Positions 17,801 through 39,480 of a DNA stretch of 39,686 nucleotides are shown here, piece by piece. The stretch spans positions 21,343 through 61,028 of the forward strand of contig CAZSPX010000001.1 of the NCBI GenBank assembly GCA_964608885.1. The letters are read 5' to 3'. Made by a program: the position numbers and the translations under genes. How positions within the stretch are numbered: the first letter of the stretch is position 1; each line of letters starts with the position of its first letter. The notes beneath the pieces were generated by a model. The model saw nothing but the letters and a program-made list of their open reading frames with translations, did no database searches and was not told the origin of the DNA. The DNA comes from an uncultured Anaerolineaceae bacterium (GTDB lineage Bacteria > Chloroflexota > Anaerolineae > Anaerolineales > Villigracilaceae).

Positions 17801-19717
17801 ATGGTTACCGGTTGGTCAGACAACTTACTCGGGGGGATCCGAACACTCAACCAGATCCTGACGGCAGGAATCGCCATCACGGCTTTTTCACTATTCCTGT
17901 ACGCGCTTTCATTCAATTTACGAGACCGGGTGGCCCGGTCTTTTGCCATCATCCTTCTGTGCGTGGTGGTTGTGTTCACCACGGAAGCCCTGCAGGATGA
18001 TTCGATCCCGGCGCGGGGGCTGGATATACTTCTGCGCCTGCAGTGGCTGGGGATCATCTACCTGCCGGCCGCCTATCTGCATCTCTCGGATGCGGTCCTT
18101 GTCACTGCCGGGCGTCCCTCGCGCGGCCGTCGCCGGCTGGCTGTTCGGGGTATCTACCTTATCTCGACCCTTTTCCTGGTCCTGATGGCCTCAGGGTACC
18201 TTCTGGGACCGCTGGTCCCAAATGGCGTGCCCGCGCCCCATCTCCAGCGCACCCTGTGGACAGAAATATTCACGCTATTTTACGTATTCACGATCGCCTG
18301 GGCCGGGGTGAATTTCCTGCGAGCATACCGGCGGATGCTGACGCGTTCCGGTCAGCGGCGAATGCTGTACCTGATGGCGGGAGCGACTGCTCCGGCCCTG
18401 GGTTCCTACCCGTACCTGATGTTCGGCTCGAGCCTTGCGGCCCAGTTTCCCCATCTTTTCTGGGGAGTTGCCCTGGTCATCAATATTCTGGTGGCGGGGC
18501 TTGTGGTCATCATGGCGTATGCCGTAGCCTTTTTCGGGGTTTCATGGCCGGACCGGGTCGTCAAAAGCCGACTGTTCAAATGGATCATGCGCGGGCCCGT
18601 CACGGCCTCGGCCGCTCTGGGTATGATGACGATTGTACGGCGCGCGGGGGAGGTCTTTGGGGGCATTCCATATAATGCCTTTGTGCCCCTGGTCGTGGTG
18701 GCGACCGTGCTGCTCCTGGAGCACTTGATCACCCTGGTTGCTCCGATCTGGGAGCGCTGGCTTTTTTATGGCCGGGACAGGACAGAACTGCGATTCCTGC
18801 AAAATGTGGAGGAGCGCCTCCTCACGGGAAGCGACCTGAACCAATTCCTGGAGGCTGTCCTGGCAGCGGTCCGTGACCACCTCCAGTCTCCCTCGGCCTT
18901 TGTGGCTGCCCTGGACGAAGATGAGCTATCAATGATCGTGCTTGCCGGAAAGCGCAGCATGATCAGCCAACCGGACCTGCCGCAGGTAATGGAGCGCGTG
19001 AACGGCAATGGGCCGCGCCATGAATTTATATGGGGAGATTTCTGGGTGCTCCCGCTCTATCAGCGCAGGCGACTGGAGATGGACCGCGATGAACAGCCAC
19101 CCCTGCTTGGCCTGCTGGGCGTGGCACGCCGGGGAGGAGAAGACCTGGAACATGACCAGCGGGAGGCGTTATGGCTCCTGGCGGACCGGGCTGCCCTGGC
19201 GCTTGAAGACCGGCAGTTACAGCAGCGGGTCTTCCGCTCCCTGGAAGACCTTCAACCCCAGGTGGAGATGATCCAGAGGCTGCGAGCGGCAGGCCGCTAC
19301 GATGTAAGCGCCAACCTGCTATCTGAGCCGCTGCCCCAGGAGAGTGATCTTGCCAACTGGGTGAAGGATGCTCTTACCCACTACTGGGGCGGCCCCAAGC
19401 TCACGGCCAGTCCCTTGATGCGCCTTCAGGTGGTGCAGGAACTGACCGATGATCATGAAGGCAATACGGCCAACGCGCTGCGTGCACTCCTGCGCAAGGC
19501 AGTAGATCAAGTCAAGCCGGAGGGGGACCGGCGCTTCACCACGGAATGGATTCTCTACAATATACTTGAAATGAAATTCATCGAAGGGCGCAAGGTGCGC
19601 GAAGTGGCTTCACGCCTCGCTATGTCTGAGGCCGACCTGTACCGCAAGCAGCGAGTGGCGGTGGAGGCAGTGGCACACGCGATCCTGGAGATGGAATCTG
19701 AGATACAGGAACGATAG
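17801..19717 (+). CDS. Polytopic membrane protein fused to a GAF-like domain and a C-terminal sigma-70-region-4-like HTH (putative membrane-embedded one-component regulator)
   Basis: 638 aa. About 7-8 hydrophobic helices in aa 15-320. A GAF-like region at aa ~335-480 (LLGLLGVARRGG...LADRAALALEDRQL). The C-terminus is ILYNILEMKFIEGRKVREVASRLAMSEADLYRKQRVAVEAVAHAIL. GGAAGG RBS. Confidence 0.7.
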   Translation: MVTGWSDNLLGGIRTLNQILTAGIAITAFSLFLYALSFNLRDRVARSFAIILLCVVVVFTTEALQDDSIPARGLDILLRLQWLGIIYLPAAYLHLSDAVLVTAGRPSRGRRRLAVRGIYLISTLFLVLMASGYLLGPLVPNGVPAPHLQRTLWTEIFTLFYVFTIAWAGVNFLRAYRRMLTRSGQRRMLYLMAGATAPALGSYPYLMFGSSLAAQFPHLFWGVALVINILVAGLVVIMAYAVAFFGVSWPDRVVKSRLFKWIMRGPVTASAALGMMTIVRRAGEVFGGIPYNAFVPLVVVATVLLLEHLITLVAPIWERWLFYGRDRTELRFLQNVEERLLTGSDLNQFLEAVLAAVRDHLQSPSAFVAALDEDELSMIVLAGKRSMISQPDLPQVMERVNGNGPRHEFIWGDFWVLPLYQRRRLEMDRDEQPPLLGLLGVARRGGEDLEHDQREALWLLADRAALALEDRQLQQRVFRSLEDLQPQVEMIQRLRAAGRYDVSANLLSEPLPQESDLANWVKDALTHYWGGPKLTASPLMRLQVVQELTDDHEGNTANALRALLRKAVDQVKPEGDRRFTTEWILYNILEMKFIEGRKVREVASRLAMSEADLYRKQRVAVEAVAHAILEMESEIQER

Positions 19718-27646: not shown

Positions 27647-28150
27647 CTACCAGCCCGTGATATAGGGCTCCCATTCGTTGTATTCGATCAGATGTCTTCC
27701 ATACAGGTAGACTGCGCTGGCAGGCGGCTCCTTCGGCAGGCGCAGCAGGTTCATATGGATCTCATCCAGGTTGCGGCTGCCTTTCCGGTGATTACAGGAA
27801 GGACAGGCGGCAACAACATTTGTCCAGACATGCTCCCCACCCTGATGGCGGGGTTTGACATGATCGACCGTCAGGCTGCCATCCTTCCGCCCACAATACT
27901 GGCAGGTATAATTGTCACGCCGGAAGACCTCCCGACGGGTCAGCTTGACCCGTGGACGGGGACGGTGGATCTGCTCCTCCAGCCGGATGATCGAGGGACG
28001 AGGCAAAAGCTCGGAAACGGTGTGGATGTGGCCGCGTCCATTCACGACCATGTCAGCCTTGCCTGAAAGAAGCAGACTGATGGCCCGCCGTGTAGAACAG
28101 ACATTGATCGGCTCAAAATTGGCGTTGAGCACTAAAACTGGCTCATTCAT
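27647..28150 (-). CDS. HNH endonuclease (small, stand-alone)
   Basis: 167 aa from the ATG at 28150 (MNEPVLVLNANFEPINV...). YTCQYCGRKDGSLTVDHVKPRHQGGEHVWTNVVAACPSCNHRKG has CxxC...H...N...CxxC...H. The 196-codon upstream extension in the track ORF is antisense to the epimerase gene and was discarded. Confidence 0.88.
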   Translation of the reverse strand: MNEPVLVLNANFEPINVCSTRRAISLLLSGKADMVVNGRGHIHTVSELLPRPSIIRLEEQIHRPRPRVKLTRREVFRRDNYTCQYCGRKDGSLTVDHVKPRHQGGEHVWTNVVAACPSCNHRKGSRNLDEIHMNLLRLPKEPPASAVYLYGRHLIEYNEWEPYITGW

Positions 28151-28225
28151 GGAGCCTCTATAATAGGCACGATTATACTGCTTTTCAGCAGCCTGCATGA
28201 CGACACCACACTGGAGAAAATTGGT

Positions 28226-29128
28226 ATGAATGTACTCATTTCGGGGGGGACCGGCTTCATCGGCCGGTGGTTGGCCGCCTCTCTCCTTGGCGATGGGCAC
28301 AAGGTCTGGGCCCTGAGCCGGGATGCGGAGCAGAAGAGCGCCGTGGAAGGATTCGAAGTCGTCCAGTGGGATGGGAGCACACCTGCGGGCTGGGGCCACC
28401 TGATGAACGAGATGGACGCGGTGGTCAATCTGGCGGGGCGCTCGCTCGATTCCTGGCCCTGGACAAAGGCGATGAAGCGGGAATTCCTCGAATCGCGTGT
28501 AAACGCCGGGCGGGCCCTCACGGAAGCGATCCGGATCGCCGATAAAAAGCCGGCTGTTCTCCTGCAGGCTTCCGGTATCAATCATTATGGGCTTCAGGGC
28601 GAGCTGGCCGATGAATCCACCCCTCCCGGCGAGGATTTCCCGGCCCGCCTCACGGTCGATTGGGAGGATTCCACACGGGGGGTCAAAGCCATGGGAGTCC
28701 GGCGGGTCGTGACGCGTTCGGCGGTTGTTCTTGCACAAGGGGAAGGGTTGCTGCCTCTCATGAGCCTGCCTGTCAAATTATTCATCGGCGGGCGGCTGGG
28801 GGAAGGCACACAGGCCATGCCGTGGATCCATATCGCGGATGAGATCGGGGCCATGCGGTTCCTTCTGGAACATGAGGAGGCGCGCAGCGTTTTCAACCTG
28901 ATCGCTCCCCAGCCGACCTCGAACGAGCTCTTCATGCGCGGATTGACCCGGGCGCTCAAGAGACCCTATTGGTTTCCCACTCCGGCCTTCCTGCTGCGTT
29001 TTGTCCTGGGCGAGATGAGCGTGATGGTCACCCGGGGACGGTACAGCCAGCCCAAGCGGCTGTTGGAAATGGGGTATGATTTCAAATTCCCAACGCTTGA
29101 GCTTGCGCTGGCCGATCTATTTTCCTGA
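28226..29128 (+). CDS. TIGR01777/YfcH-like NAD-dependent epimerase family protein (with C-terminal DUF1731-like region)
   Basis: 300 aa. MNVLISGGTGFIGRWL Rossmann motif, VVNLAG, and a C-terminal GRYSQPKRLLEMGYDFKFP. GGAG RBS. Confidence 0.85.
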   Translation: MNVLISGGTGFIGRWLAASLLGDGHKVWALSRDAEQKSAVEGFEVVQWDGSTPAGWGHLMNEMDAVVNLAGRSLDSWPWTKAMKREFLESRVNAGRALTEAIRIADKKPAVLLQASGINHYGLQGELADESTPPGEDFPARLTVDWEDSTRGVKAMGVRRVVTRSAVVLAQGEGLLPLMSLPVKLFIGGRLGEGTQAMPWIHIADEIGAMRFLLEHEEARSVFNLIAPQPTSNELFMRGLTRALKRPYWFPTPAFLLRFVLGEMSVMVTRGRYSQPKRLLEMGYDFKFPTLELALADLFS

Positions 29129-29182
29129 CGGGTAATTCAGCATTCCCGGGCCACCCGTCAGATCCTTCAAAGGAGTCTACCC

Positions 29183-29863
29183 ATGAAACGTGTCTTGATC
29201 TTGCTGGCAGTGATGGTGTTGACCGGATGCGCGTCTCGCATCCCCCAGATCCCAACACTCCCATCCGAGTATCTGAACGCTCCCACGCCCTATATAGCCC
29301 CCTCCTATCCCACTGCCGAAGCCCAGGTGCTGTCCTCAAACCAGCTCATGAGCGGCGTGGATGTGCGTATTGACCGCGCCTGGCAGGACGGGAAACAGCT
29401 GAATGCCGATGTCTGTTTTACCCTACCGGACGACTCCGACTGGTCCATCTGGAAGGCCAGCCTGCAGTTCGCAGGAACGACCGTGACCGATTTTGGCACC
29501 ACGCTTCAAAGCCTTCAGGCGCCTGCCGATGGACAAACCGGGCAGCGCTGCGATACGATCAACTTCTATGTGCCTCCGGACGCTGACCTGACCAACACCA
29601 CCATCACGATCGAAGCCATCGCTGCACCTCCACGTGAGGGCGAGTACTGCGATCTATACCTGCCCAAGATCCAGACCGCGCTTCAATCGCGGGGCGTGGC
29701 CATCGCGATCGGGTGCACGCCTGACGCGAACGGAGTTCAGAACCTGCAGATCACCAGTTTCCCTCCCGAAATGACGCAGGAACAGGCGGAGGCGATCGTA
29801 TTCAGCGACGAGTTCTATTCCATCCCTGGCCCCTGGGTCTTCACCTTCAACCTGGCGCAATAA
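29183..29863 (+). CDS. Hypothetical lipoprotein
   Basis: 226 aa. Signal peptide with lipobox MKRVLILLAVMVLTGC. AAGGAG RBS. No recognisable family. Confidence 0.65.
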   Translation: MKRVLILLAVMVLTGCASRIPQIPTLPSEYLNAPTPYIAPSYPTAEAQVLSSNQLMSGVDVRIDRAWQDGKQLNADVCFTLPDDSDWSIWKASLQFAGTTVTDFGTTLQSLQAPADGQTGQRCDTINFYVPPDADLTNTTITIEAIAAPPREGEYCDLYLPKIQTALQSRGVAIAIGCTPDANGVQNLQITSFPPEMTQEQAEAIVFSDEFYSIPGPWVFTFNLAQ

Positions 29864-29883
29864 GGGCAACTAGAACGGAGAAG

Positions 29884-29913
29884 CGAGCCCGGAGCCTTGC
29901 AGCCCCGGGCTCG
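29884..29913 (+). terminator. Hairpin downstream of the lipoprotein gene (terminator candidate)
   Basis: CGAGCCCGG (29884-29892) pairs with CCGGGCTCG (29905-29913): 9 bp with a 12-nt loop. Only a weak T-run (GTGTTAT) follows. Confidence 0.4.
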
Positions 29914-29945
29914 GTGTTATCCGCCTCTTCGCAGCGCCCCGGAAA

Positions 29946-29954
29946 TGTTATAAT
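29946..29954 (+). promoter_or_regulatory. Extended -10 promoter element (TGtTATAAT) for the tyrS leader
   Basis: TGTTATAAT at 29946-29954. Six nt downstream lies the ATG at 29961 of a 12-codon ORF, so the predicted transcription start coincides with that ATG. Confidence 0.45.
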
Positions 29955-29960
29955 CGGCGA

Positions 29961-29999
29961 ATGTTCAAAACCGTTTATTACTCTTATTTACGTCTCTAA
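29961..29999 (+). CDS. Candidate Tyr-rich leader peptide (MFKTVYYSYLRL) of a tyrS attenuator
   Basis: ATG TTC AAA ACC GTT TAT TAC TCT TAT TTA CGT CTC TAA: 3 Tyr codons out of 12. There is no SD, but it sits where a leaderless start is predicted. The stop lies 7 nt upstream of the antiterminator arm. Confidence 0.3.
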   Translation: MFKTVYYSYLRL

Positions 30000-30005
30000 T
30001 GGTTC

Positions 30006-30050
30006 CGATGGTGATTGAACGCGCCCACCATCGCGGGCGCGTTTTTATTT
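30006..30050 (+). promoter_or_regulatory. Transcription attenuator in the tyrS 5' leader: mutually exclusive antiterminator and intrinsic terminator
   Basis: Terminator: AACGCGCCC (30018-30026) / GGGCGCGTT (30035-30043), followed by TTTATTT. Alternative helix: CGATGGTG (30006-30013) / CACCATCG (30026-30033), which uses the last base of the terminator 5' arm and its loop. No promoter-like sequence lies between it and the tyrS RBS. Confidence 0.55.
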
Positions 30051-30099
30051 CAAATGCCGGCGGGGCATGAGTGCCTCGGAGAATCGGGTGGAGGATGAC

Positions 30100-31311
30100 A
30101 TGGAAATTGACGAGCAAGTCGAGCTTTTGATGCAGGGGACTGAATATGGCGATGAAGAGCTGAAAAAAGCCATGTCCGCCGAGCTGCGTGAGCGGCTGTT
30201 GCTGGCCAAGACAGAAAACCGCCCATTGCGGGTATATTGCGGTTACGACCCCACCTCCAAAGATCTCCACCTGGGCCACACCATTACCATGCGCAAGCTG
30301 CGGCAGTTCCAGGAACTGGGACATGAGGTCACCTTCCTGATCGGCAGCTATACCGCCCTGGTCGGAGACCCATCAGATAAGAACAAGGCGCGCCCAATCC
30401 TAAGCCAGGAACAAGTGGCCGAGAACGCCCGGACCTATTCCGAGCAGGCGTTCCGGGTGCTGGATCGCAAAAAAACTATTGTGCGGGCAAACGGTGAATG
30501 GCTGGCAGAGCTTTCCCTGCTGGACCTGATCCGCCTCGGGCAGAACTTTACGGTGCAGCAATTCCTGGCCCGCGAGAATTTCTCCAACCGGCTGGATAAA
30601 GGCGAACCGATCTATCTGCACGAGACATTCTACGCCCTCATGCAGGGATATGACGCCGTGGCCATGAAGACCGACATCCAGGTGGGCGGTACAGACCAGT
30701 TGTTCAACATCATTGTTGCGGGGCGCAAGCTTCAGGAGGCGCTAGGGCAGAAACCGCTGGTGGGCATCATCTGCGGGATCCTGCCCGGCACGGACGGAAT
30801 CCTGCGGATGTCCAAATCCACGGGCAACATTGTCCCGATCAACACCACTCCGGAGGACATGTACGGCAAGGTCATGTCCGTTCCGGATTTTGCCATGGGG
30901 AAATTCTACCGGTTGGTGACGCGGTTTTCGCCTCACGAGATCGAAGGCATCGAAAAGGCTCTCGCCGCCGGAAGCCTGCATCCCCGGGATGCCAAGATGC
31001 GGCTTGCCCACGAAATCACCAGCATTTTTTACGGCGAGTCCGCGGCCGGAGCCGCCCAGGAAGCTTTCGTCAGGACATTCCAGCAAAAAGAGACTCCGGA
31101 AGAAATGCCGGAGTATCAATTGAAGCCGGAGGAAACAGTGCTGGACGTGATCCTTTCGGCGGGCCTGGCGGAAAGCCGAAGCAAAGCGCGCGCCCTCATA
31201 GACCAAAAAGGTGTCCGGCTGGATGGTCGAACACTGGAGCGCGGGGATGTGTTATTCCCGCACCCCGGTGTCTTGCAGGTCGGGAAGCGCCGTTTCCTGC
31301 GCGTGAAGTAA
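30100..31311 (+). CDS. tyrS: Tyrosine--tRNA ligase
   Basis: YCGYDPTSKDLHLGH (HIGH motif), RMSKSTGN (KMSKS motif), and a C-terminal S4-like domain (ESRSKARALIDQKGVRLDG). I preferred the ATG at 30100 (GGTGGAGGA RBS 5 nt upstream). The track ATG at 30067 has no RBS. Confidence 0.9.
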   Translation: MEIDEQVELLMQGTEYGDEELKKAMSAELRERLLLAKTENRPLRVYCGYDPTSKDLHLGHTITMRKLRQFQELGHEVTFLIGSYTALVGDPSDKNKARPILSQEQVAENARTYSEQAFRVLDRKKTIVRANGEWLAELSLLDLIRLGQNFTVQQFLARENFSNRLDKGEPIYLHETFYALMQGYDAVAMKTDIQVGGTDQLFNIIVAGRKLQEALGQKPLVGIICGILPGTDGILRMSKSTGNIVPINTTPEDMYGKVMSVPDFAMGKFYRLVTRFSPHEIEGIEKALAAGSLHPRDAKMRLAHEITSIFYGESAAGAAQEAFVRTFQQKETPEEMPEYQLKPEETVLDVILSAGLAESRSKARALIDQKGVRLDGRTLERGDVLFPHPGVLQVGKRRFLRVK

Positions 31312-31344
31312 TCGGCTTTTCCCCATATTTCGCAATTCGAGGGC

Positions 31345-34300
31345 TCATCCCTCGGCAGTCAGGTGCTCCTCATCCACCATTTTGAGGAACTCATTTGCGA
31401 TCTCTGGATCGAATCGGGTACCAATCTCACCCCGGATATAATCGATCACCTTTTCGCGCGGCCATGCCTTCCGGTACGGGCGGTCATAGAGCAGTGCATC
31501 CCACACATCCACCAGCGCAAATATCCGTGCTGACAGCGGGATCTCCTCGCCTTTGAGCCGGTTGGGATAGCCCTCCCCATCCCAGCGTTCGTGATGTGCA
31601 TAGGGGATGTCCACCGCGGGCCGCAGGTACGAGATCGGGTGGAGGAGATCATAGGCGTATTGCGGGTGCTTGCGCATTTCCACCCATTCCTGCTCGTCCA
31701 GCGGACCGGACTTCTTGAGAATATGGTCAGGGACCGCCATCTTGCCAATATCATGCAGAAGCACACCGCGGCGCATGCTCACCAGTTCTGTTTCAGGAAC
31801 TCTTAAGCGGCGCGCAAGGCGCAGGGTCAGATCCGTAACGCGGAGAGTGTGACCCTGGGTCTCACGATCACGAAGCTCCAGGGCTTTGCCCCAGCCCTCC
31901 AGGGTGGTGTCGTAGGCCAGGGACAGCTCCTGGTTGGAACGCTGAAGATTGTCAAAAAGCTGTGAGTTGTCGATTGCAATGGCTGCCTGGCCGGCCATAG
32001 TCTGGAAGAAGTCCAACCAATCTGCCTCGGGCGGAGGCGCCTGTCGGTAATAGACCTCCAGAATACCCTTGACCTGTCCCTTGCTGATAAGCGGCGTGGC
32101 GAAATATCTGATAAACCGTTCCTGGCGGGCAAGGTCCTTGCGGTGGAATTGAGGCTCACTACCCACATCCTCCACGCGGATCATCTTCCGCTCCAGCAGG
32201 GCTTCATCCAGTATCCTGCCGGAAGCCCGTAGATTGGTCTGGATCAGCGCGGCCTGCCGGAAACCCAGGCTGGCAATATGATCCAGAGCGCGCATTTCGG
32301 GGTTGTAGGAGAAGATCGCGGCAGCGTCGGCATGTAGTTGTGAAACGGTATGGTCGAGGAGGATGTTGAGGGTAACACGCAGATCAAAGCTGGAGGCAAT
32401 GGCCGTATCCACATCCCGGAGGGCTGTCAGGCGCTTGACCTGCCCCTCGCTCTGGTCAAAAAGCTGTGCGCGATGGATGGCGTTTCCGGATATCTCGGCA
32501 AGAGTGGTGAGCAGTTGTACCTGGGCGGGCTCAATCCTGCGCGGCCTCGGAACGGCCACGAACATGACACCGATCGTCTGGGAGGATGTGCTGATGGGGA
32601 TTCCCACGCCCGCCCAGCCGGTCTCAACTCCCTCTCCCAGGTCCTTCGCTGAGAGCGCATCACTGCCAAAATCATGGATGAGGAGGACCTGGCCGTTCCG
32701 GAAGATCTGCCCGGCAATGGACTGGTTGGACTGGATCTGTTTCAATCCGGCCTGGCTCAGCCAACCACTGGAGACCTTGCGGTCGAGCTGATTTGTCACT
32801 GGGTCATGCAGCCAGATCGAAGCTGCGTCCGTATCGATGACCTTCAGCACCTCCCGGAGGAGGACTGGAGGAACCTCATCGGGCCGGCTCAGGGCCCGCA
32901 GGGCAAAGGTAACCCGGCCCACCACCTCCAATTCCTCCATGCGCTTGCGCGTCTCCTGGTACAGGCGTGCGTTATCGATGGCCGCAGCGGCCTGATAGGC
33001 AAAGGTTCGTGCCAGGGCGGCCGACTTTTCGTCGAAGGTTCCCACCTCATAGCTATCCAGCGTGATATATCCCACCACCTCGCCGCGGGTCACGAGCGAG
33101 ACGCCCATCCAGCCACGTACGCTGTCTGCCGCAGCCCAGCGCTCAAAGCGGGAGTCGACCTGGGCATCGTACAGAATCACCGGCTCGTTGTTATTGGCGT
33201 CGATGGCCAGCAAAAGCTTGTTGTCTGAGGGGAAGGTCTGGTGCATCGCCTGTGTCTGGTTCGGCAGCCCCTGTGCGGCTGTGATGCGGACTTTGTCGCC
33301 TTCAAGAAGAAGGATCGAGCCGCTGTCGAACGGAACCACCTGCCTTAAGGCGGTAAGGATGGTCTCAAGCACCTGCTGCGGGTCCAGGGAGGATGTCACC
33401 GCGGAAGCGGCCAACCGGAGATTTTCTGCCTCCTCGCGGCGCTGCTGTTCCAGCTCGAATAGACGGGCATTCCCGATGGCGTTGGCGGCATTATTTGCGA
33501 CTGCCAGGGCCAATTCCTCGTCTTCCCGGGTGAAATGTCCGGGCTCGCTGCTATCCAGGGTTGCCATGCCGATCGTAGTATTGCGGACGAGGATGGGGAT
33601 GGCAAGCGTGGAGCGCAATTCAGAGATCCCCGGGATCCAGCGATAGCGATCATCCGTGAGCGTATCTTCGATCCGGACCGGTTTTCGGGTCTCGATGACC
33701 TCACGGTTGAGGGGAAAATCTTCCAACAGCAGGTTGTTGCCCCGGTGGAGAGTATCCGGGGGGAAACCGATGGCTGCCGAGATCCGAAGCCGGTCGCCTT
33801 TCAAGAGCTGGATGGAACCGGAATCGCAGGGAATAAGCTGGATGAGATGGCCGAGAATGGTCTGATTGACCTCGTCCAGATCGAGAGAAGAGGCGGCGAG
33901 GCGCATCATTTCGAGCATGGTTGCCTCGCGCAGGCGCAGTTTGTTCTCCGCTGCAAAGGAGCGGGCGTTCTGGATCGCCACGGCTGCCTGCTGCGCAAGG
34001 CTGCTCAGAAAGTTCAGTTCCGAAGGGCGGAATTCCTTGTCGGCTCCTGTTCGCCATACCACGACCAGGCCGGTCAATTGGTCCTTGTTCAATACCGGGA
34101 CACCCATGATATGCTCAGCCGGATTGGTCTCGGTCCCCTTGATGGTGATCGCGCGCGGGTCAGCCGGTGCATAGTTGACGATCTCGCCGGTCTTGCTCAG
34201 GGCGATCTGTCCGGCGATCCCCATCCCGAGGACTACAGGATCGTTCTTGATCTCCTCGGCGTCGGCGCCGATCACTGAGATGCCATGCAGCTGCCCATCT

Positions 34301-37300
34301 TTCTCGTCCATCATGTAAACGGCGCTGGTCTCCACGTCCAGCAGGTCTTTGGCGTACCAGGCAATACGCTCCAGAACCTGGTCCAACTGCAGCGTGGAGG
34401 AGACATCCCGGCCCACCTGGGCCACGGCTGCCGACTCCTGGGCGCGCTGTACCGTTTCCTGGAACAGGCGGCTCATCCCAATGGAAATGGAGGTCTGGTG
34501 GGCAATACTGATGAGGAAATTAAGCTCGGATTCGTTGAAGAGCCCATCGGCCCGAAGCCTCCAGGCGTTGATCGCACCGATGGACTGGCCCCGCAAGATC
34601 AGGGGGGATGACATCATGGTCTCGACTTCGCCATCTTCGTTGGGAGTGCCAGGGACGGTAATGGTGCGCGGGTCGCCGCGGGTATCGTTGACGATCTCCG
34701 ACTTCCCGGCAGCGATCACATTGCCGGTGATTCCGATCCCCACCTGGATTGTGTGCGAGATCAACTGGTCGCTATAGGTGCCTTTCGCGGAAACGATCTT
34801 GACGGTCTTGTTGTCATTCTGCACCAGATAGATCGCGACATGGCTGGCTTTCAGAAGCTCAAGTGTCCTTTGAGAGACCTTGTCCAGCAGATGCCCCATT
34901 TCCTGGGTGGTGGCGAATTCGTTCGCAATATCGGCCAGGGCTTCGATGATCCTGGTTCGCCGCCGCTCCTCCTGGAAGGTCCGGGCGTTGGCGATGGCAA
35001 TGCTCGCCTGGTTGGCAAAGATCTCTGCCAGGCGGATATGCTCCTCCGTATAGAAATTGGATTGAGAGTGGTCGATCGCCAGCATGCCCAGCAGATCGTC
35101 CCCCACCAATAAAGGTACGCCCAGCCAGGAATGAATATGGCTGTGCGGGCCATCCTGGAAGGGCTGGAACAGGTCGGGGGCATTCCCGAGACGCAGCGAC
35201 CGACGTTCTCGAATCACCCGGGTATTCGGATTGTCTCCTGGTACAGGGAATCGCATGCCGAGTACCCGGGAGGGGTCTTCCCAGCCTGCGCCCCCCACGA
35301 TCTCAAGGAATCCATTGTTCAGCAACTGGACAGAGGCTGTTCGATAGGGCACAACCTTGGCCAGTTGATCCAGAATATGTTGTATGGATTGTTCCTGGTC
35401 AAGGTCGGAGGCCATGGTGGCAAGCGATTCGCGCAAGGTCTCGGCTTCGCGCCGCCGCTGTTGCTCGGCATCAAACAAGTGAGCGTTCTGAATGGCAATG
35501 GCAGCCTGATTTGCAAAGGTCTGAACGAGGGAGGCCTGCTCCTGCGTGTAAAAGCCTTCCTTTTGATTGTACAGGTTGATAAACCCGATCAGTGTGTCCT
35601 GGGCAAACAGAGGGATTCCCATCCAGCCATGGAGCTGGTCCCTGTCTTTCATATCCGCAAAGTGATCATCTGACTGGATGTCGGGGATAAGGATCGGATC
35701 GCGAGATGTGCTGAGCTTCCATTTTTCACGATCAATGGAATATTGCGTTCCGACCGTTTCGGGGGCAAGATTTCGTCCTGCAGCCGTCCTGATAATATTC
35801 CCCTCGATAAGCTCTACGGACGCGATCTCGTATGGGGCAAAGGTCACGAGCAGGTCGAGCGTCGTGTTCAACAGGGTATCAAGGTCGAGGGAGCTCGTGA
35901 GAGCTGTGGTGGCTTCTCTCAGGCGGATGGCTTCACGCGCCCGGCGTGTCTCGGCCTCGAAGAGTTGGCTCTTCATCAGGGCGGTGGACAGCCCGCCTGC
36001 AATGGTATTGATCAAACGCTCATCGGCCTCGTCGAAAGCATCAGGCTGGCAGCTTTCGATGTTAATCACACCGACGACCTTATCTTCCGAGACCAGGGGG
36101 ACACACAGCTCGGAGCGTATGCCAGGCTGGACCTCCACGTATTCGGGCATGGTTCCAACCTCACCGCTGCGGAAGGCGCGGCCGCTGGAGATCACCACAC
36201 CTGCAACACCCGTGTCGATACCTGACTTCTGCATCAATTCGGCTTTTATCCCGCCCCGGTATGATCCGTGGGGTTGAAGCGATCCGGTGGGCTCATCGAT
36301 CAACAGAATACCGCAGTTGTCAGGCTTGAGGGTGTTGTAAATAATGTCTGTGATCGTAGTGATCAGTTCGTCACTATCCGTGAGATTCGCATTTGTAACC
36401 GCAGCAGAGTGCAGCATGGTCAATTCCATCAACTGGCGCGAAGCTGCGCTCGAAGCCGCTTCACGCTGGATGGCGCTGCTCAGGATGTTCGCAGCGGTGC
36501 GAAGCGTTTCCACCTCGTTCTGTGTCCAGACGCGTTCGCGAAGACAATCATCCAGTCCGATCAGCCCCCACCACTCCTCGCCCACCATGATCGGAACGAT
36601 GATAATGGAGAGGATATTCTCGCGCAGGAATTCGGCCTGCTCCCCGGGTAACAGTTGGCGGGTGATGGAAGATATGGGCTCACCTTTCGCCAGAAGCTCC
36701 CCCCAGCGCGAGAGTCCTTCCTCGGTCAGATCGAAATCCTTCAAAACTGGATCATCGATCATGGGCTGGATCCCGGCAGCGCACCATTCGAACAGCTGGG
36801 ATATTACGGCCCGGGGCCCTTCCCCGGCGGTTCTCTTGAAAATATATACCCGGCTGGCCTCGGCTGCCAGTCCAAGTTTTTCCAGAATGGATTGGATATT
36901 GGTGGTCCAATCGGCTGATTTCAGAAATTCATCTGCTGCAAAGGCGATGGAGCCCAGAATGGCTTCCCTCCGCTCCACATTTCCCCGGGCGATTTTCTGT
37001 TCTGTAATATCGTGGAACATGGCAAGGATGCACTGCTTGCCATTCAGATTGATAATCTCATAGAACGCAGAAACATCGAGAATCTCGCCGGATTTTCGGG
37101 AGAAAATATCCTCGATATTCCGGAGGGACCGCTCGCGGTCAAGCTGTTCCAGAAACACCCGGTGTTTCTCAACACTATTGGAGCCAATCTCGAGGACCGA
37201 ACGGCCCAGAAGTTCCTCAGGCAGATATCCGCTCATGGCCCAAAAGGCCGGATTGGCTTCGATCAACCGGCCTTCTTCCCAGGTGGTAATACATGTCGGG

Positions 37301-39480
37301 ATAGGACTGGTTTGGAAGGTCTTGCTGAACCTCTCCTCGCTCTGGACGGCAGCCGCCTCGGCTTCCCGTTGGTTGGTGATCTCGACGAGGACACCCTGAT
37401 AGTACGCAGGAGTGCCATCTGACCCTTGAATCATCTGGGCATGGTCATGAACCCAGATCATGCGACCATCCCGGCAGACCATGCGATACTCCACCGTTAA
37501 AGGTTGTCCGGTGGTTTCGGACCGGCCGACCTCTGCCTGTACACGTTCAAGATCATCGGGGTGGATAACCCGGGACCACAGGCCCGTGCCGCCCAACCAT
37601 TCATAATCGGGATATCCTGTAAGCTCCCCGATCCGCGGGCTTACGTATGTTACCCGCCCGTCCTCGACATCCAGAATATATACGGTCGCGGGGACATTTT
37701 CAACGAGCGCACGGTAGCGGGCCTCTGCCGCCTTAAGGGTTTGCTCGGCCTGTTTTCGATCGGTGATATCTTCTGCGAAGGCGATCAACGCCTCCTGTCC
37801 AAAATAGGAGGTCCTGGAGACACGGACATGCTTGGGGAACACCTCTCCATTCTTGCGGCGTCCCCAAAACTCGAACTGTTGGGGGGATCCCTGCAAAGCA
37901 AGCTGCAATTGACTGGATATAACAGCAAGGTCGTTCTTTCCCGGTGCAGCTACATCCGCAGGGGATTTCCCGATCAATTCCTCCCTGGAAAAGCCGTACA
38001 TCCGGCTGGCGCCCTCGTTCACATCCAGAAATACGCCGTTCGTGTCCTGGATGTAAATGGCATCCTGAACAGAATCAAACAGGCCACGATAGGAATGTTC
38101 CGTCTCGCGCAGGGCTTCGCGTGTCCGTCGTTCCTCGGAGATATCCAACAAAAGGCCCTGCCAGTAAAGGGGATTTCCCTGCTCATCCCAGACCGGCACG
38201 GCACGGTCCCGCACCCAGATGGTCCGACCATCCTTGGCAGTCAGGCGGTACTCGATATTATAAGGAGCAAGGGTTTCGTTGGTGCGACGGTTCTCCTCAA
38301 TAGCGCGTTGCCGGTCATCCGGATGGAGGGATGCGATCCAGAGCTGTGGGTCGGCCAACCACTCCTGCGGGGTGTAGCCGGTCAGCTTCTCGATCTGAGG
38401 GCTGATATAGACCTGGTGGGTTGTCCCCTGAGGGTTGATCAATTCGGTGTAAGGCGCTGCCGGCATCTGTTCCACCAGCGCGCGATAGCGGGCCTCCGCC
38501 ATTTGCAGGCTGGCTCGGGCCATACGCCTTTCTGTAACGTCATGGCATACCACCAGGACACGGGCGGGCTGCTGCAGTCCTGTGAAGACACGGGCGTCGC
38601 CCTCCACCCACAGGGTGACAGCCTGGCGGCTGGTAATGCGGTATTCAAAGTGGTTGGTCTGCCCGGGATTGGCAATGGCTTGACGGATATGGGCAAGGAC
38701 CGGCTCACGGTCCAACTCGTTGATAAAATCCAGAAAGGGCCGGTCCACCAGGTCTGTTGCACTTGCGCCAAGAAATTCCTCCATGCTTCTGTTGACCGCC
38801 AGGATCAAGCCAGCTTCATCCAGGGTCACCAGCATCAGAGGATTGTTGTCATACAGGTCTCGGAGACCTCCCTCCAGTTCTGGAGAGGAGCGTTCGCCGC
38901 CCCTCTCGCTGCTGATCTCCTTCAAAAAGCCTTCTACATACTGGATTTCGGAGTTTTGTCCCCGGATCAGGTGGACGTTCACCCGGACCCAGAAGGTTGT
39001 GCCATCCTTGCGGCGCGCCAGGGGTTCGAACCGGTCGATCTCATCCTGTTCTTTGAGCAGTTCCAGGAGAGGTGTTCGCGTTTCCGCCTCGGCGTAGATG
39101 ATCGAGGCGATATTGGGAACCGACCGGATCATCTCCTCGGGAGAGGCATAACCGAAGGTACGCGCCAGGGCGGGATTAACCCGCACAAATTGCCCCCCGG
39201 GCAAACACTGGAAGAAGCCTTCCAGCGCGTGGTCGAAGATGCGGTGATAATCCCCCTCGATCTTGATCCATTGCCTGCTCTCCTGGCGGAGCAGGAAATA
39301 GAGCGCCGCGCCGATCACCGCCAGGGTGATCCAGCCGCCAAAGTCGGCGAGGAACTTCACAACCCCTGGGGATTGGATATGTGCCGGAAGGATGTAGTTG
39401 AATAGAGCGATACAGGCTGCTCCCAGGCAGGCGATGAGCAGCGTAATGTAGATGGCAACAGGGAGACGGGACGCTCTCAT
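31345..39480 (-). CDS. Giant multidomain signalling protein: 2 TM + ~6 PAS + 10 GAF + C-terminal HD-GYP phosphodiesterase domain
   Basis: 2711 aa uninterrupted. N-terminal hydrophobic helices are at aa 7-30 and 45-65. PAS-like units span aa ~75-828 (nt ~36997-39258). Ten GAF units (nt ~31936-36978) each end in an ...A(I/V)AI.NA(R/H)LF.(E/Q)-type helix. HD-GYP occupies nt 31348-31926 (LLHDIGKMAVPDHIL, HHERWDGEGYP). No SD precedes the ATG at 39480. Confidence 0.9.
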   Translation of the reverse strand: MRASRLPVAIYITLLIACLGAACIALFNYILPAHIQSPGVVKFLADFGGWITLAVIGAALYFLLRQESRQWIKIEGDYHRIFDHALEGFFQCLPGGQFVRVNPALARTFGYASPEEMIRSVPNIASIIYAEAETRTPLLELLKEQDEIDRFEPLARRKDGTTFWVRVNVHLIRGQNSEIQYVEGFLKEISSERGGERSSPELEGGLRDLYDNNPLMLVTLDEAGLILAVNRSMEEFLGASATDLVDRPFLDFINELDREPVLAHIRQAIANPGQTNHFEYRITSRQAVTLWVEGDARVFTGLQQPARVLVVCHDVTERRMARASLQMAEARYRALVEQMPAAPYTELINPQGTTHQVYISPQIEKLTGYTPQEWLADPQLWIASLHPDDRQRAIEENRRTNETLAPYNIEYRLTAKDGRTIWVRDRAVPVWDEQGNPLYWQGLLLDISEERRTREALRETEHSYRGLFDSVQDAIYIQDTNGVFLDVNEGASRMYGFSREELIGKSPADVAAPGKNDLAVISSQLQLALQGSPQQFEFWGRRKNGEVFPKHVRVSRTSYFGQEALIAFAEDITDRKQAEQTLKAAEARYRALVENVPATVYILDVEDGRVTYVSPRIGELTGYPDYEWLGGTGLWSRVIHPDDLERVQAEVGRSETTGQPLTVEYRMVCRDGRMIWVHDHAQMIQGSDGTPAYYQGVLVEITNQREAEAAAVQSEERFSKTFQTSPIPTCITTWEEGRLIEANPAFWAMSGYLPEELLGRSVLEIGSNSVEKHRVFLEQLDRERSLRNIEDIFSRKSGEILDVSAFYEIINLNGKQCILAMFHDITEQKIARGNVERREAILGSIAFAADEFLKSADWTTNIQSILEKLGLAAEASRVYIFKRTAGEGPRAVISQLFEWCAAGIQPMIDDPVLKDFDLTEEGLSRWGELLAKGEPISSITRQLLPGEQAEFLRENILSIIIVPIMVGEEWWGLIGLDDCLRERVWTQNEVETLRTAANILSSAIQREAASSAASRQLMELTMLHSAAVTNANLTDSDELITTITDIIYNTLKPDNCGILLIDEPTGSLQPHGSYRGGIKAELMQKSGIDTGVAGVVISSGRAFRSGEVGTMPEYVEVQPGIRSELCVPLVSEDKVVGVINIESCQPDAFDEADERLINTIAGGLSTALMKSQLFEAETRRAREAIRLREATTALTSSLDLDTLLNTTLDLLVTFAPYEIASVELIEGNIIRTAAGRNLAPETVGTQYSIDREKWKLSTSRDPILIPDIQSDDHFADMKDRDQLHGWMGIPLFAQDTLIGFINLYNQKEGFYTQEQASLVQTFANQAAIAIQNAHLFDAEQQRRREAETLRESLATMASDLDQEQSIQHILDQLAKVVPYRTASVQLLNNGFLEIVGGAGWEDPSRVLGMRFPVPGDNPNTRVIRERRSLRLGNAPDLFQPFQDGPHSHIHSWLGVPLLVGDDLLGMLAIDHSQSNFYTEEHIRLAEIFANQASIAIANARTFQEERRRTRIIEALADIANEFATTQEMGHLLDKVSQRTLELLKASHVAIYLVQNDNKTVKIVSAKGTYSDQLISHTIQVGIGITGNVIAAGKSEIVNDTRGDPRTITVPGTPNEDGEVETMMSSPLILRGQSIGAINAWRLRADGLFNESELNFLISIAHQTSISIGMSRLFQETVQRAQESAAVAQVGRDVSSTLQLDQVLERIAWYAKDLLDVETSAVYMMDEKDGQLHGISVIGADAEEIKNDPVVLGMGIAGQIALSKTGEIVNYAPADPRAITIKGTETNPAEHIMGVPVLNKDQLTGLVVVWRTGADKEFRPSELNFLSSLAQQAAVAIQNARSFAAENKLRLREATMLEMMRLAASSLDLDEVNQTILGHLIQLIPCDSGSIQLLKGDRLRISAAIGFPPDTLHRGNNLLLEDFPLNREVIETRKPVRIEDTLTDDRYRWIPGISELRSTLAIPILVRNTTIGMATLDSSEPGHFTREDEELALAVANNAANAIGNARLFELEQQRREEAENLRLAASAVTSSLDPQQVLETILTALRQVVPFDSGSILLLEGDKVRITAAQGLPNQTQAMHQTFPSDNKLLLAIDANNNEPVILYDAQVDSRFERWAAADSVRGWMGVSLVTRGEVVGYITLDSYEVGTFDEKSAALARTFAYQAAAAIDNARLYQETRKRMEELEVVGRVTFALRALSRPDEVPPVLLREVLKVIDTDAASIWLHDPVTNQLDRKVSSGWLSQAGLKQIQSNQSIAGQIFRNGQVLLIHDFGSDALSAKDLGEGVETGWAGVGIPISTSSQTIGVMFVAVPRPRRIEPAQVQLLTTLAEISGNAIHRAQLFDQSEGQVKRLTALRDVDTAIASSFDLRVTLNILLDHTVSQLHADAAAIFSYNPEMRALDHIASLGFRQAALIQTNLRASGRILDEALLERKMIRVEDVGSEPQFHRKDLARQERFIRYFATPLISKGQVKGILEVYYRQAPPPEADWLDFFQTMAGQAAIAIDNSQLFDNLQRSNQELSLAYDTTLEGWGKALELRDRETQGHTLRVTDLTLRLARRLRVPETELVSMRRGVLLHDIGKMAVPDHILKKSGPLDEQEWVEMRKHPQYAYDLLHPISYLRPAVDIPYAHHERWDGEGYPNRLKGEEIPLSARIFALVDVWDALLYDRPYRKAWPREKVIDYIRGEIGTRFDPEIANEFLKMVDEEHLTAEG

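Follow-up and report, generated by a model that had tools for sequence, protein, structure and literature searches.

Tyrosine-rich reading frame and terminator upstream of tyrS

In the 39,686-nt stretch of DNA from an uncultured Anaerolineaceae bacterium analyzed here (contig CAZSPX010000001.1; hereafter the window), the tyrosyl-tRNA synthetase (TyrRS) gene tyrS occupies positions 30100-31311 of the forward strand and encodes a 403-aa protein with a Pfam tRNA-synt_1b match (4e-70) and an S4 domain. As judged from comparative sequence analysis, this gene is very probably preceded by a tyrosine-sensing, ribosome-mediated (leader-peptide) transcription attenuator, the elements of which all lie on the same strand. 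The first of them is an extended -10 promoter sequence, TGtTATAAT (29946-29954, hexamer 29949-29954), for which no -35 element could be recognized in the window. A 6-nt spacer (CGGCGA) separates the hexamer from the ATG at 29961 of a 12-codon open reading frame (ORF), MFKTVYYSYLRL (29961-29999, TAA at 29997-29999), three codons of which specify tyrosine and would act as the sensor (TAT 29976-78, TAC 29979-81 and TAT 29985-87). Only nine TATAAT hexamers exist on both strands of the whole window, and one of them lies exactly 6 nt before this ATG.

The region between the leader ORF and tyrS could adopt alternative structures. Six nt after the stop codon and 18 nt after the last Tyr codon begins region 2, CGATGGTG (30006-30013), the putative 5' arm of an antiterminator, which is complementary to region 3, CACCATCG (30026-30033), the putative 3' arm. 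Region 3 is composed of the distal end of the 5' arm of an intrinsic terminator, the terminator loop and the first base of the terminator's 3' arm. The terminator itself (AACGCGCCC/GGGCGCGTT) has its stem at 30018-30026 / 30035-30043, extendable to 10-11 pairs (30017-30044), and a T-run at 30042-30050. A spacer of 56 nt then leads to tyrS and includes its Shine-Dalgarno (SD) sequence GGTGGAGGA (30087-30095). An ATG at 30067 was considered as the start of tyrS and ruled out, as related proteins align from residue 1 at the SD-bearing ATG 30100. A first-pass annotation made from the sequence alone had already named the TATAAT, the leader ORF, the hairpin, the ribosome-binding site and the tyrS ATG, all of which our reading of the sequence confirmed at the same positions. 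Its pairing partner for region 2 also stood, whereas the gap between stop codon and region 2, given there as seven nt, is in fact six (30000-30005).

Conservation of the leader and its helices in Anaerolineales

We compared the window with 80 further tyrS loci retrieved with the TyrRS protein from one-genome-per-species contigs (81 loci in total, labeled with L numbers below), all of which belong to Anaerolineales or Anaerolineae (Chloroflexota) and encode TyrRS proteins of 64-84% identity. A locus was counted when an ORF with at least two Tyr codons among its last ten was followed by a GC-rich hairpin with a T-run and then by tyrS. The short Tyr-containing ORF that had been noted in the window proved to be widely conserved by this measure, since 70 of the 81 loci carry a Tyr-rich ORF whose stop codon lies 21-31 nt 5' of the hairpin, a spacing with which the ribosome geometry proposed in the first-pass annotation is consistent. 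In 52 loci the layout is that of a leaderless gene, with an ORF of 8-17 codons and a perfect TATAAT located 6 nt (48 loci) or 7 nt (4 loci) upstream of it. The short-ORF form is also seen in L079, an uncultured Leptolinea MAG. Typical leader peptides among the relatives are MFEKVTTNRYYYYTRP, MSSKVFTSRYYYYYHP and MLNIFSFVYYYSRA; each of the 52 contains 2-5 Tyr, placed 4-7 codons 5' of the stop. The distance between terminator and tyrS ranges from 20 to 133 nt across loci (median 44 nt).

The Tyr codons bear the mark of selection at the level of translation. Tyrosine accounts for 21% of the leader codons in frame, compared with 0.8-0.9% in the other two frames and 3% in TyrRS, and it is encoded by 109 TAT and 52 TAC codons. 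Within 20 nt of the start codon, an SD-like motif was absent from all 52 leaders (0/52) and present for tyrS in 75 of the 81 loci. Given this frame bias, the fixed spacing of the TATAAT and the absence of SD sequences, the element appears to be a translated ORF on an mRNA that starts at its own start codon, and we consider it likely that the leader mRNA is leaderless. The possibility that the Tyr run (TATTAT) is instead a -10 element of tyrS was ruled out, because TAC accounts for a third of the Tyr codons and the run is always in frame with the ATG; moreover, no TAnnnT occurs in the run of the window, TATTACTCTTAT, and stop and ATG lie at fixed distances from the run.

Several further features of the leader region were apparent. 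TAT makes up 68% of the Tyr codons in leaders (109/161) versus 45-53% in tyrS and in the other genes of the window, an excess that could mean that the sensor favors the codon read by wobble or RNA that is AU-rich and unstructured. The relatives have a -35-like TTGnCG, which overlaps with the end of the upstream lipoprotein-like gene; in place of this motif, the window has the TGn extension of its -10 element. Two loci carry degenerate leaders with the terminator kept, namely L052 (1871-1930), whose ORF starts with GTG and encodes MSGRLGSIYHGKRA, with only one Tyr, and L024 (1816-1878; MFGSNYSSKRYFSTRP); these copies suggest that in some lineages the sensor is decaying or being re-tuned. The only other TATAAT-N6-start arrangement in the window (18671-18683) precedes an in-frame GTG within a 638-aa ORF without Pfam match (17801-19717), where this GTG could be an internal leaderless start.

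The element is associated exclusively with tyrS. When metagenome contigs were searched in reverse, using the RNA pattern alone, 72 contigs were obtained, of which 66 have tyrS 28-158 nt downstream, five end too early and one is unclear; a Tyr-rich ORF in the TATAAT-N6/7-ATG arrangement was found in 69 of the 72. In addition, the window and about 320 kb of flanking sequence were scanned for further leaderless short ORFs followed by a terminator, and none encoded a leader peptide specific to another amino acid. The window copy is itself a member of the family. When 32 relatives, with the window left out, were used to build a covariance model, R1, this model matched window positions 29979-30047 over its full length (52.5 bits, E~1e-11), and this was the sole credible match in the 39.7 kb.

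Next to these primary-sequence features, the RNA helices are conserved as structures. In a MAFFT alignment of 52 elements, 96.7% of the cells of the terminator helix are paired, with five pairs changed on both sides. The antiterminator helix, formed between the spacer and the terminator loop region, is 89.7% paired with 20 double-change cells, and its covariation score of 0.239 compares with 0.02-0.07 for slid partners (24-82% paired) and was not reached in any of 500 shuffles. Both helices drawn in the first-pass annotation thus covary. A third helix, which that annotation had overlooked, pairs the end of the leader ORF (region 1, the three codons that follow the Tyr run) with the 5' arm of the antiterminator; this 1:2 helix is 79% paired, exceeds both controls and, by its presence in the family, completes the classical trp-type logic. 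RNAalifold, applied to a 32-sequence subset, recovered the 1:2 helix and the terminator unguided (column pair 15/32, CG:11, UA:11). Furthermore, sub-families share the same topology with different arms, such as GCGAGGG/CCCTCGC, TGTGGAG/CTCCACA and GUUUUACG/CGUAAAAC or, written as RNA, GCGAUGGUG/CAYCAUCGC and GUUUUACGAC/GUCGUAAAAC. Finally, the spacer forms a more stable duplex with its own loop than with foreign ones (means of -11.3 vs -7.1 kcal/mol; true of 63 of 70 loci), with a Wilcoxon value of 1e-11 that was computed on non-independent samples.

In 16 loci the sensor takes a different form. There, the Tyr run constitutes the C-terminus (..AYYYARG or ..YYYSRT before the stop) of a gene of about 165-174 codons, the product of which is predicted to have two transmembrane segments and contains a bPH_6-like domain (1.9e-5; loci L004, L005, L039, L042-L045, L049, L051, L053, L055, L057, L062, L064, L075 and L078, at ~1350-1930 of each). 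One of these loci, L064, is from a MAG assigned to Anaerolinea thermophila. Directly after the stop codon of this bPH-like gene comes an attenuator with the topology described above, and tyrS follows it. TATAAT-N6/7-start arrangements were found for 13 of 19 bPH-like genes. Among the matches listed in a homologue search, 120 of 120 proteins with 70% identity or more have the C-terminus ..YYY[ATGV][RH]. or one very similar to it; all of these matches are close relatives, and the single-Tyr comparators are confined to six loci (L059, L060, L068, L069, L054 and L074). In these six, the protein has a tail with a single conserved Tyr (..IYSRE, ..IYSRP, ..RYTRP, ..NYSRP or ..VVYTR), and either a separate short leader follows the bPH-like gene or no Tyr-sensing attenuator comes directly after it. 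This difference between the tails suggests that the triple Tyr is regulatory and that the gene would serve as a leader peptide. On these grounds we rate the chances as about even that a full-length bPH-like gene doubles as the leader peptide of the attenuator and that mini-ORF and embedded sensor were interconverted during Anaerolineales evolution. The searched literature contained no precedent for a full-length gene in this role. If confirmed, sensors for attenuation can end ordinary genes, and scans for short upstream ORFs alone would miss them.

Predicted switch and competing explanations

The arrangement of the elements suggests the following mechanism. Transcription would start at about A29961 from the extended -10 promoter, so that the RNA begins with the leader AUG, and a 70S ribosome would initiate on this 5' AUG and translate the leader while RNA polymerase moves ahead. 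With ample Tyr-tRNA, the ribosome would reach the UAA at 29997 and cover the beginning of region 2 (30006-13); or else it would leave, and region 1 within the leader ORF would capture region 2. With region 2 unavailable, the hairpin at 30018-30043 with its U-run is predicted to form and transcription to end before tyrS. When Tyr-tRNA is scarce, the ribosome would stall with a Tyr codon (29976-87) in its A site. Its downstream edge would then lie about 12-15 nt further, short of 30006, and in the family consensus it would also cover region 1. The footprint sizes used in this argument are established knowledge; their placement on the leader is predicted. Region 2, being free, could pair with region 3 (30026-33) once the latter has been made, and the resulting antiterminator would enclose the 5' arm of the terminator in its own loop, allowing the polymerase to read into tyrS. 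Terminator and antiterminator should be mutually exclusive, judging from their topology, because a pseudoknot of the two would leave 2 nt to span an 8-bp stem. Since it is conserved in more than 100 related Anaerolineales sequences, the element very probably serves to raise synthesis of the synthetase when charged tRNA-Tyr is scarce.

A number of observations speak against this interpretation or at least temper it. The window copy is off consensus, in that it has 12 codons and a Tyr pattern of YYSY, in which not all Tyr are adjacent; its leader tail reads LRL, compared with T-H/R-P in the family. The consensus 1:2 helix is unmatched in the window. The minimum free energy (MFE) fold of 29961-30055 by RNAfold offers a substitute, in which a candidate window-specific region 1 (ACCGUU, 29970-29975) may pair with 30007-30012, yet this comprises only 6 bp including two G-U pairs. 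In the family consensus, the stop codon lies 7-9 nt from region 2, and a terminating ribosome would therefore cover only the first few bases of that region. Of the two window folds that the first-pass annotation had set against each other, the terminator (-17.5 kcal/mol) is more stable than the antiterminator (-11.1 kcal/mol), so that the switch relies on kinetics; the 3' arm of the antiterminator is transcribed before that of the terminator. Mononucleotide-shuffle z-scores are weak (means of -0.6 for the antiterminator and -0.7 for the 1:2 folds) because the G-rich spacer readily pairs with the C-rich terminator arm; as these scores are uninformative, they were replaced by the covariation counts and the comparison of own and foreign loops. 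The sequences used for covariation are phylogenetically related, which inflates the statistics through shared ancestry, though the existence of sequence-distinct sub-families argues against shared ancestry as the whole explanation. Lastly, none of the RNA sequencing runs searched proved to contain the window, and the metatranscriptome contigs on the relatives L011 and L035 are of low depth, come from non-identical strains and are possibly contaminated with DNA, so that their breaks near leader and terminator are unreadable as transcript ends.

Among the competing explanations, the one closest to our interpretation retains the attenuator and dispenses with the leaderless mRNA. Transcription would then start further upstream, for instance by read-through from the lipoprotein-like gene at 29183-29863, and the TATAAT would be incidental. 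Chloroflexi are indeed predicted to have few leaderless genes, about 5%, with a signal of the TAtaaT type (PMC3160421). Moreover, 3' of the lipoprotein-like gene the window carries a strong 9-bp GC hairpin (CGAGCCCGG...CCGGGCUCG, 29884-29913), an insertion missing from the relatives, and the weakness of its U-tail makes some read-through possible. However, a TATAAT that is fixed 6-7 nt from the ATG in the 52 loci and in 69 of the 72 metagenome matches cannot be incidental, and with no SD at any leader ATG a leadered transcript could not load ribosomes. The TATAAT-N6/7-start arrangement of the neighboring bPH-like gene in 13 of 19 cases in the relatives points in the same direction, and we consider an upstream start unlikely.

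Alternatively, the hairpin might be a constitutive terminator, either of a small ORF or small RNA or of the upstream gene, and tyrS might be transcribed from an unregulated promoter of its own at 30051-30086. In keeping with this, a generic terminator scan of 29000-31500 was not above chance (2 sites vs 2.5 expected), and a weak -10-like TCAAAT lies at about 30050. Unlike the terminator scan alone, the whole element is far above chance. The first-pass annotation had stated that no promoter separates terminator and tyrS, and this was borne out: no promoter-like site, including any of the sigma-70 type, was found 3' of the hairpin in our scan of the window, and the spacer before tyrS, which can be as short as 20 nt, contains a perfect TATAAT in 0 of the 70 attenuator loci. 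With no promoter after the terminator in the attenuator genomes, tyrS transcription must therefore pass through it. The 11 loci without a recognized attenuator look different. Three of them (L024, L052 and L054) are degenerate or borderline copies, and in five of the other eight the tyrS ATG is preceded, at 31-36 nt, by a perfect TATAAT. As a constitutive terminator would also leave the covariation between loop and spacer and the in-frame Tyr codons unexplained, we regard this scenario as very unlikely.

It is still less probable that another factor controls termination, be it direct binding of tRNA-Tyr as in a T-box, a tyrosine riboswitch, or TyrRS or another protein, even though tyrS is under T-box control in many Firmicutes (PMC1262725) and T-boxes do occur in Anaerolineae, because the conserved part is a reading frame with a start codon and synonymous variation of its Tyr codons instead of a fixed RNA sequence, and because the ~45 nt between leader stop and the end of the terminator hairpin are too short for a T-box of ~200 nt. 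The view of the first-pass annotation that the element does not appear to be a T-box agrees with our Rfam search, in which the families, including the T-box and curated amino-acid leaders, gave no match at gathering score or at E<=10 in 29800-30200, and the T-box model RF00230 gave none near tyrS in 15 related loci. This negative is meaningful because the same model detects a T-box 5' of ileS in the two Thermanaerothrix loci, L080 (593-856, reverse strand) and L077 (628-892, reverse strand), at 93-98 bits and with an apparent AUC specifier. The tyrS genes of these two loci are without attenuator and have a perfect TATAAT 31 nt upstream. Both kinds of control, T-box and leader-peptide, are thus present in Anaerolineae, each on a different synthetase gene.

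Downstream, tyrS converges with a 2711-aa ORF on the reverse strand (31345-39480), an unusually large multi-sensor signaling protein with about five PAS and ten GAF domains and a C-terminal HD/HD_5 (HD-GYP-like) domain. Upstream, a 363-aa HNH-endonuclease ORF (27647-28738, reverse strand) overlaps by about 500 nt with an NAD-dependent epimerase/DUF1731 ORF (28226-29128, forward strand), and one of the two start sites is probably further inside its frame than listed, making that ORF shorter. DNA of the window was found again in activated-sludge metagenomes; Anaerolineales are abundant in activated sludge and in anammox reactors.

Comparison with known attenuators

Leader-peptide attenuation is a textbook mechanism whose documented cases come mainly from Proteobacteria, Actinobacteria and a few Firmicutes, and pheST, trpS, leuS and hisS are the synthetase genes for which it is known. 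The tyrS gene, in turn, is the founding example of T-box control. Surveys list tyrosine genes as T-box-regulated or unregulated (PMC1262725, PMC2965389), and our full-text literature searches turned up no leader-peptide attenuator described as specific for tyrosine, as acting on tyrS or as belonging to Chloroflexota. The element is, as far as its sequence can tell, a classical ribosome-mediated attenuator that is new in its amino acid (Tyr), its target (tyrS) and its phylum, while its mechanism is a known one.

The system closest in function is pheST of E. coli with its leader pheM, likewise a synthetase operon preceded by a short ORF with cognate codons and by alternative terminator and antiterminator structures, where stalling raises transcription (PMC1262725, PMC11802643). 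It differs in that it senses Phe, has a leader with an SD sequence and is proteobacterial; the two share no sequence relationship, and no Rfam leader family matches here. With trpL of the E. coli trp operon, the element shares, at the level of the family, three alternative helices, a region 1 that lies over the leader end, a stop codon near region 2 and the U-run. In trpL, however, the antiterminator shares a whole strand with the terminator, whereas region 3 of the tyrS element is mainly the terminator loop with adjoining arm bases. Furthermore, trp is a biosynthetic operon, whereas here the target is a synthetase and the mRNA is predicted to be leaderless. The element is no member of the His_leader family (RF00514) or of other Rfam leader families, though it is alike in its working.

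Outside the Proteobacteria, attenuators of aminoacyl-tRNA synthetase genes have likewise been found by comparative genomics, namely those predicted for trpS and leuS in Streptomyces (PMC1262725) and the His leader peptide of hisS/hisZ in bacilli (PMC2965389). These concern other amino acids and other phyla, and none is on tyrS or in Chloroflexota. The only Tyr-containing leader peptide found in the searched literature is AroR of C. glutamicum (Phe-Tyr-Phe), which also acts on an aromatic-amino-acid gene; it is reported to respond to the availability of Phe and not of Tyr, and controls aroF, not tyrS (PMC11802643). With regard to leaderless sensors, the polycysteine ORFs of mycobacteria are likewise short leaderless ORFs with sensor codons in amino-acid-responsive attenuators, but their effect is on translation, through the release of a sequestered ribosome-binding site (bioRxiv 10.1101/834739). 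The tyrS element should act on transcription, because its canonical intrinsic terminator lies far from the tyrS SD sequence.

For genome annotation, the element provides a recognizable small ORF and RNA structure in Anaerolineales; it also supports routine leaderless translation in this lineage and could serve as a tyrosine-responsive part. In its target it meets the tyrS T-box of the B. subtilis type (RF00230), which serves the same gene, reads the same signal of charged versus uncharged tRNA-Tyr and likewise switches between terminator and antiterminator, but binds the tRNA directly, without translation, and its model does not match here. T-box and leader peptide would then be two unrelated RNA mechanisms that solve the same sensing problem for tyrS.

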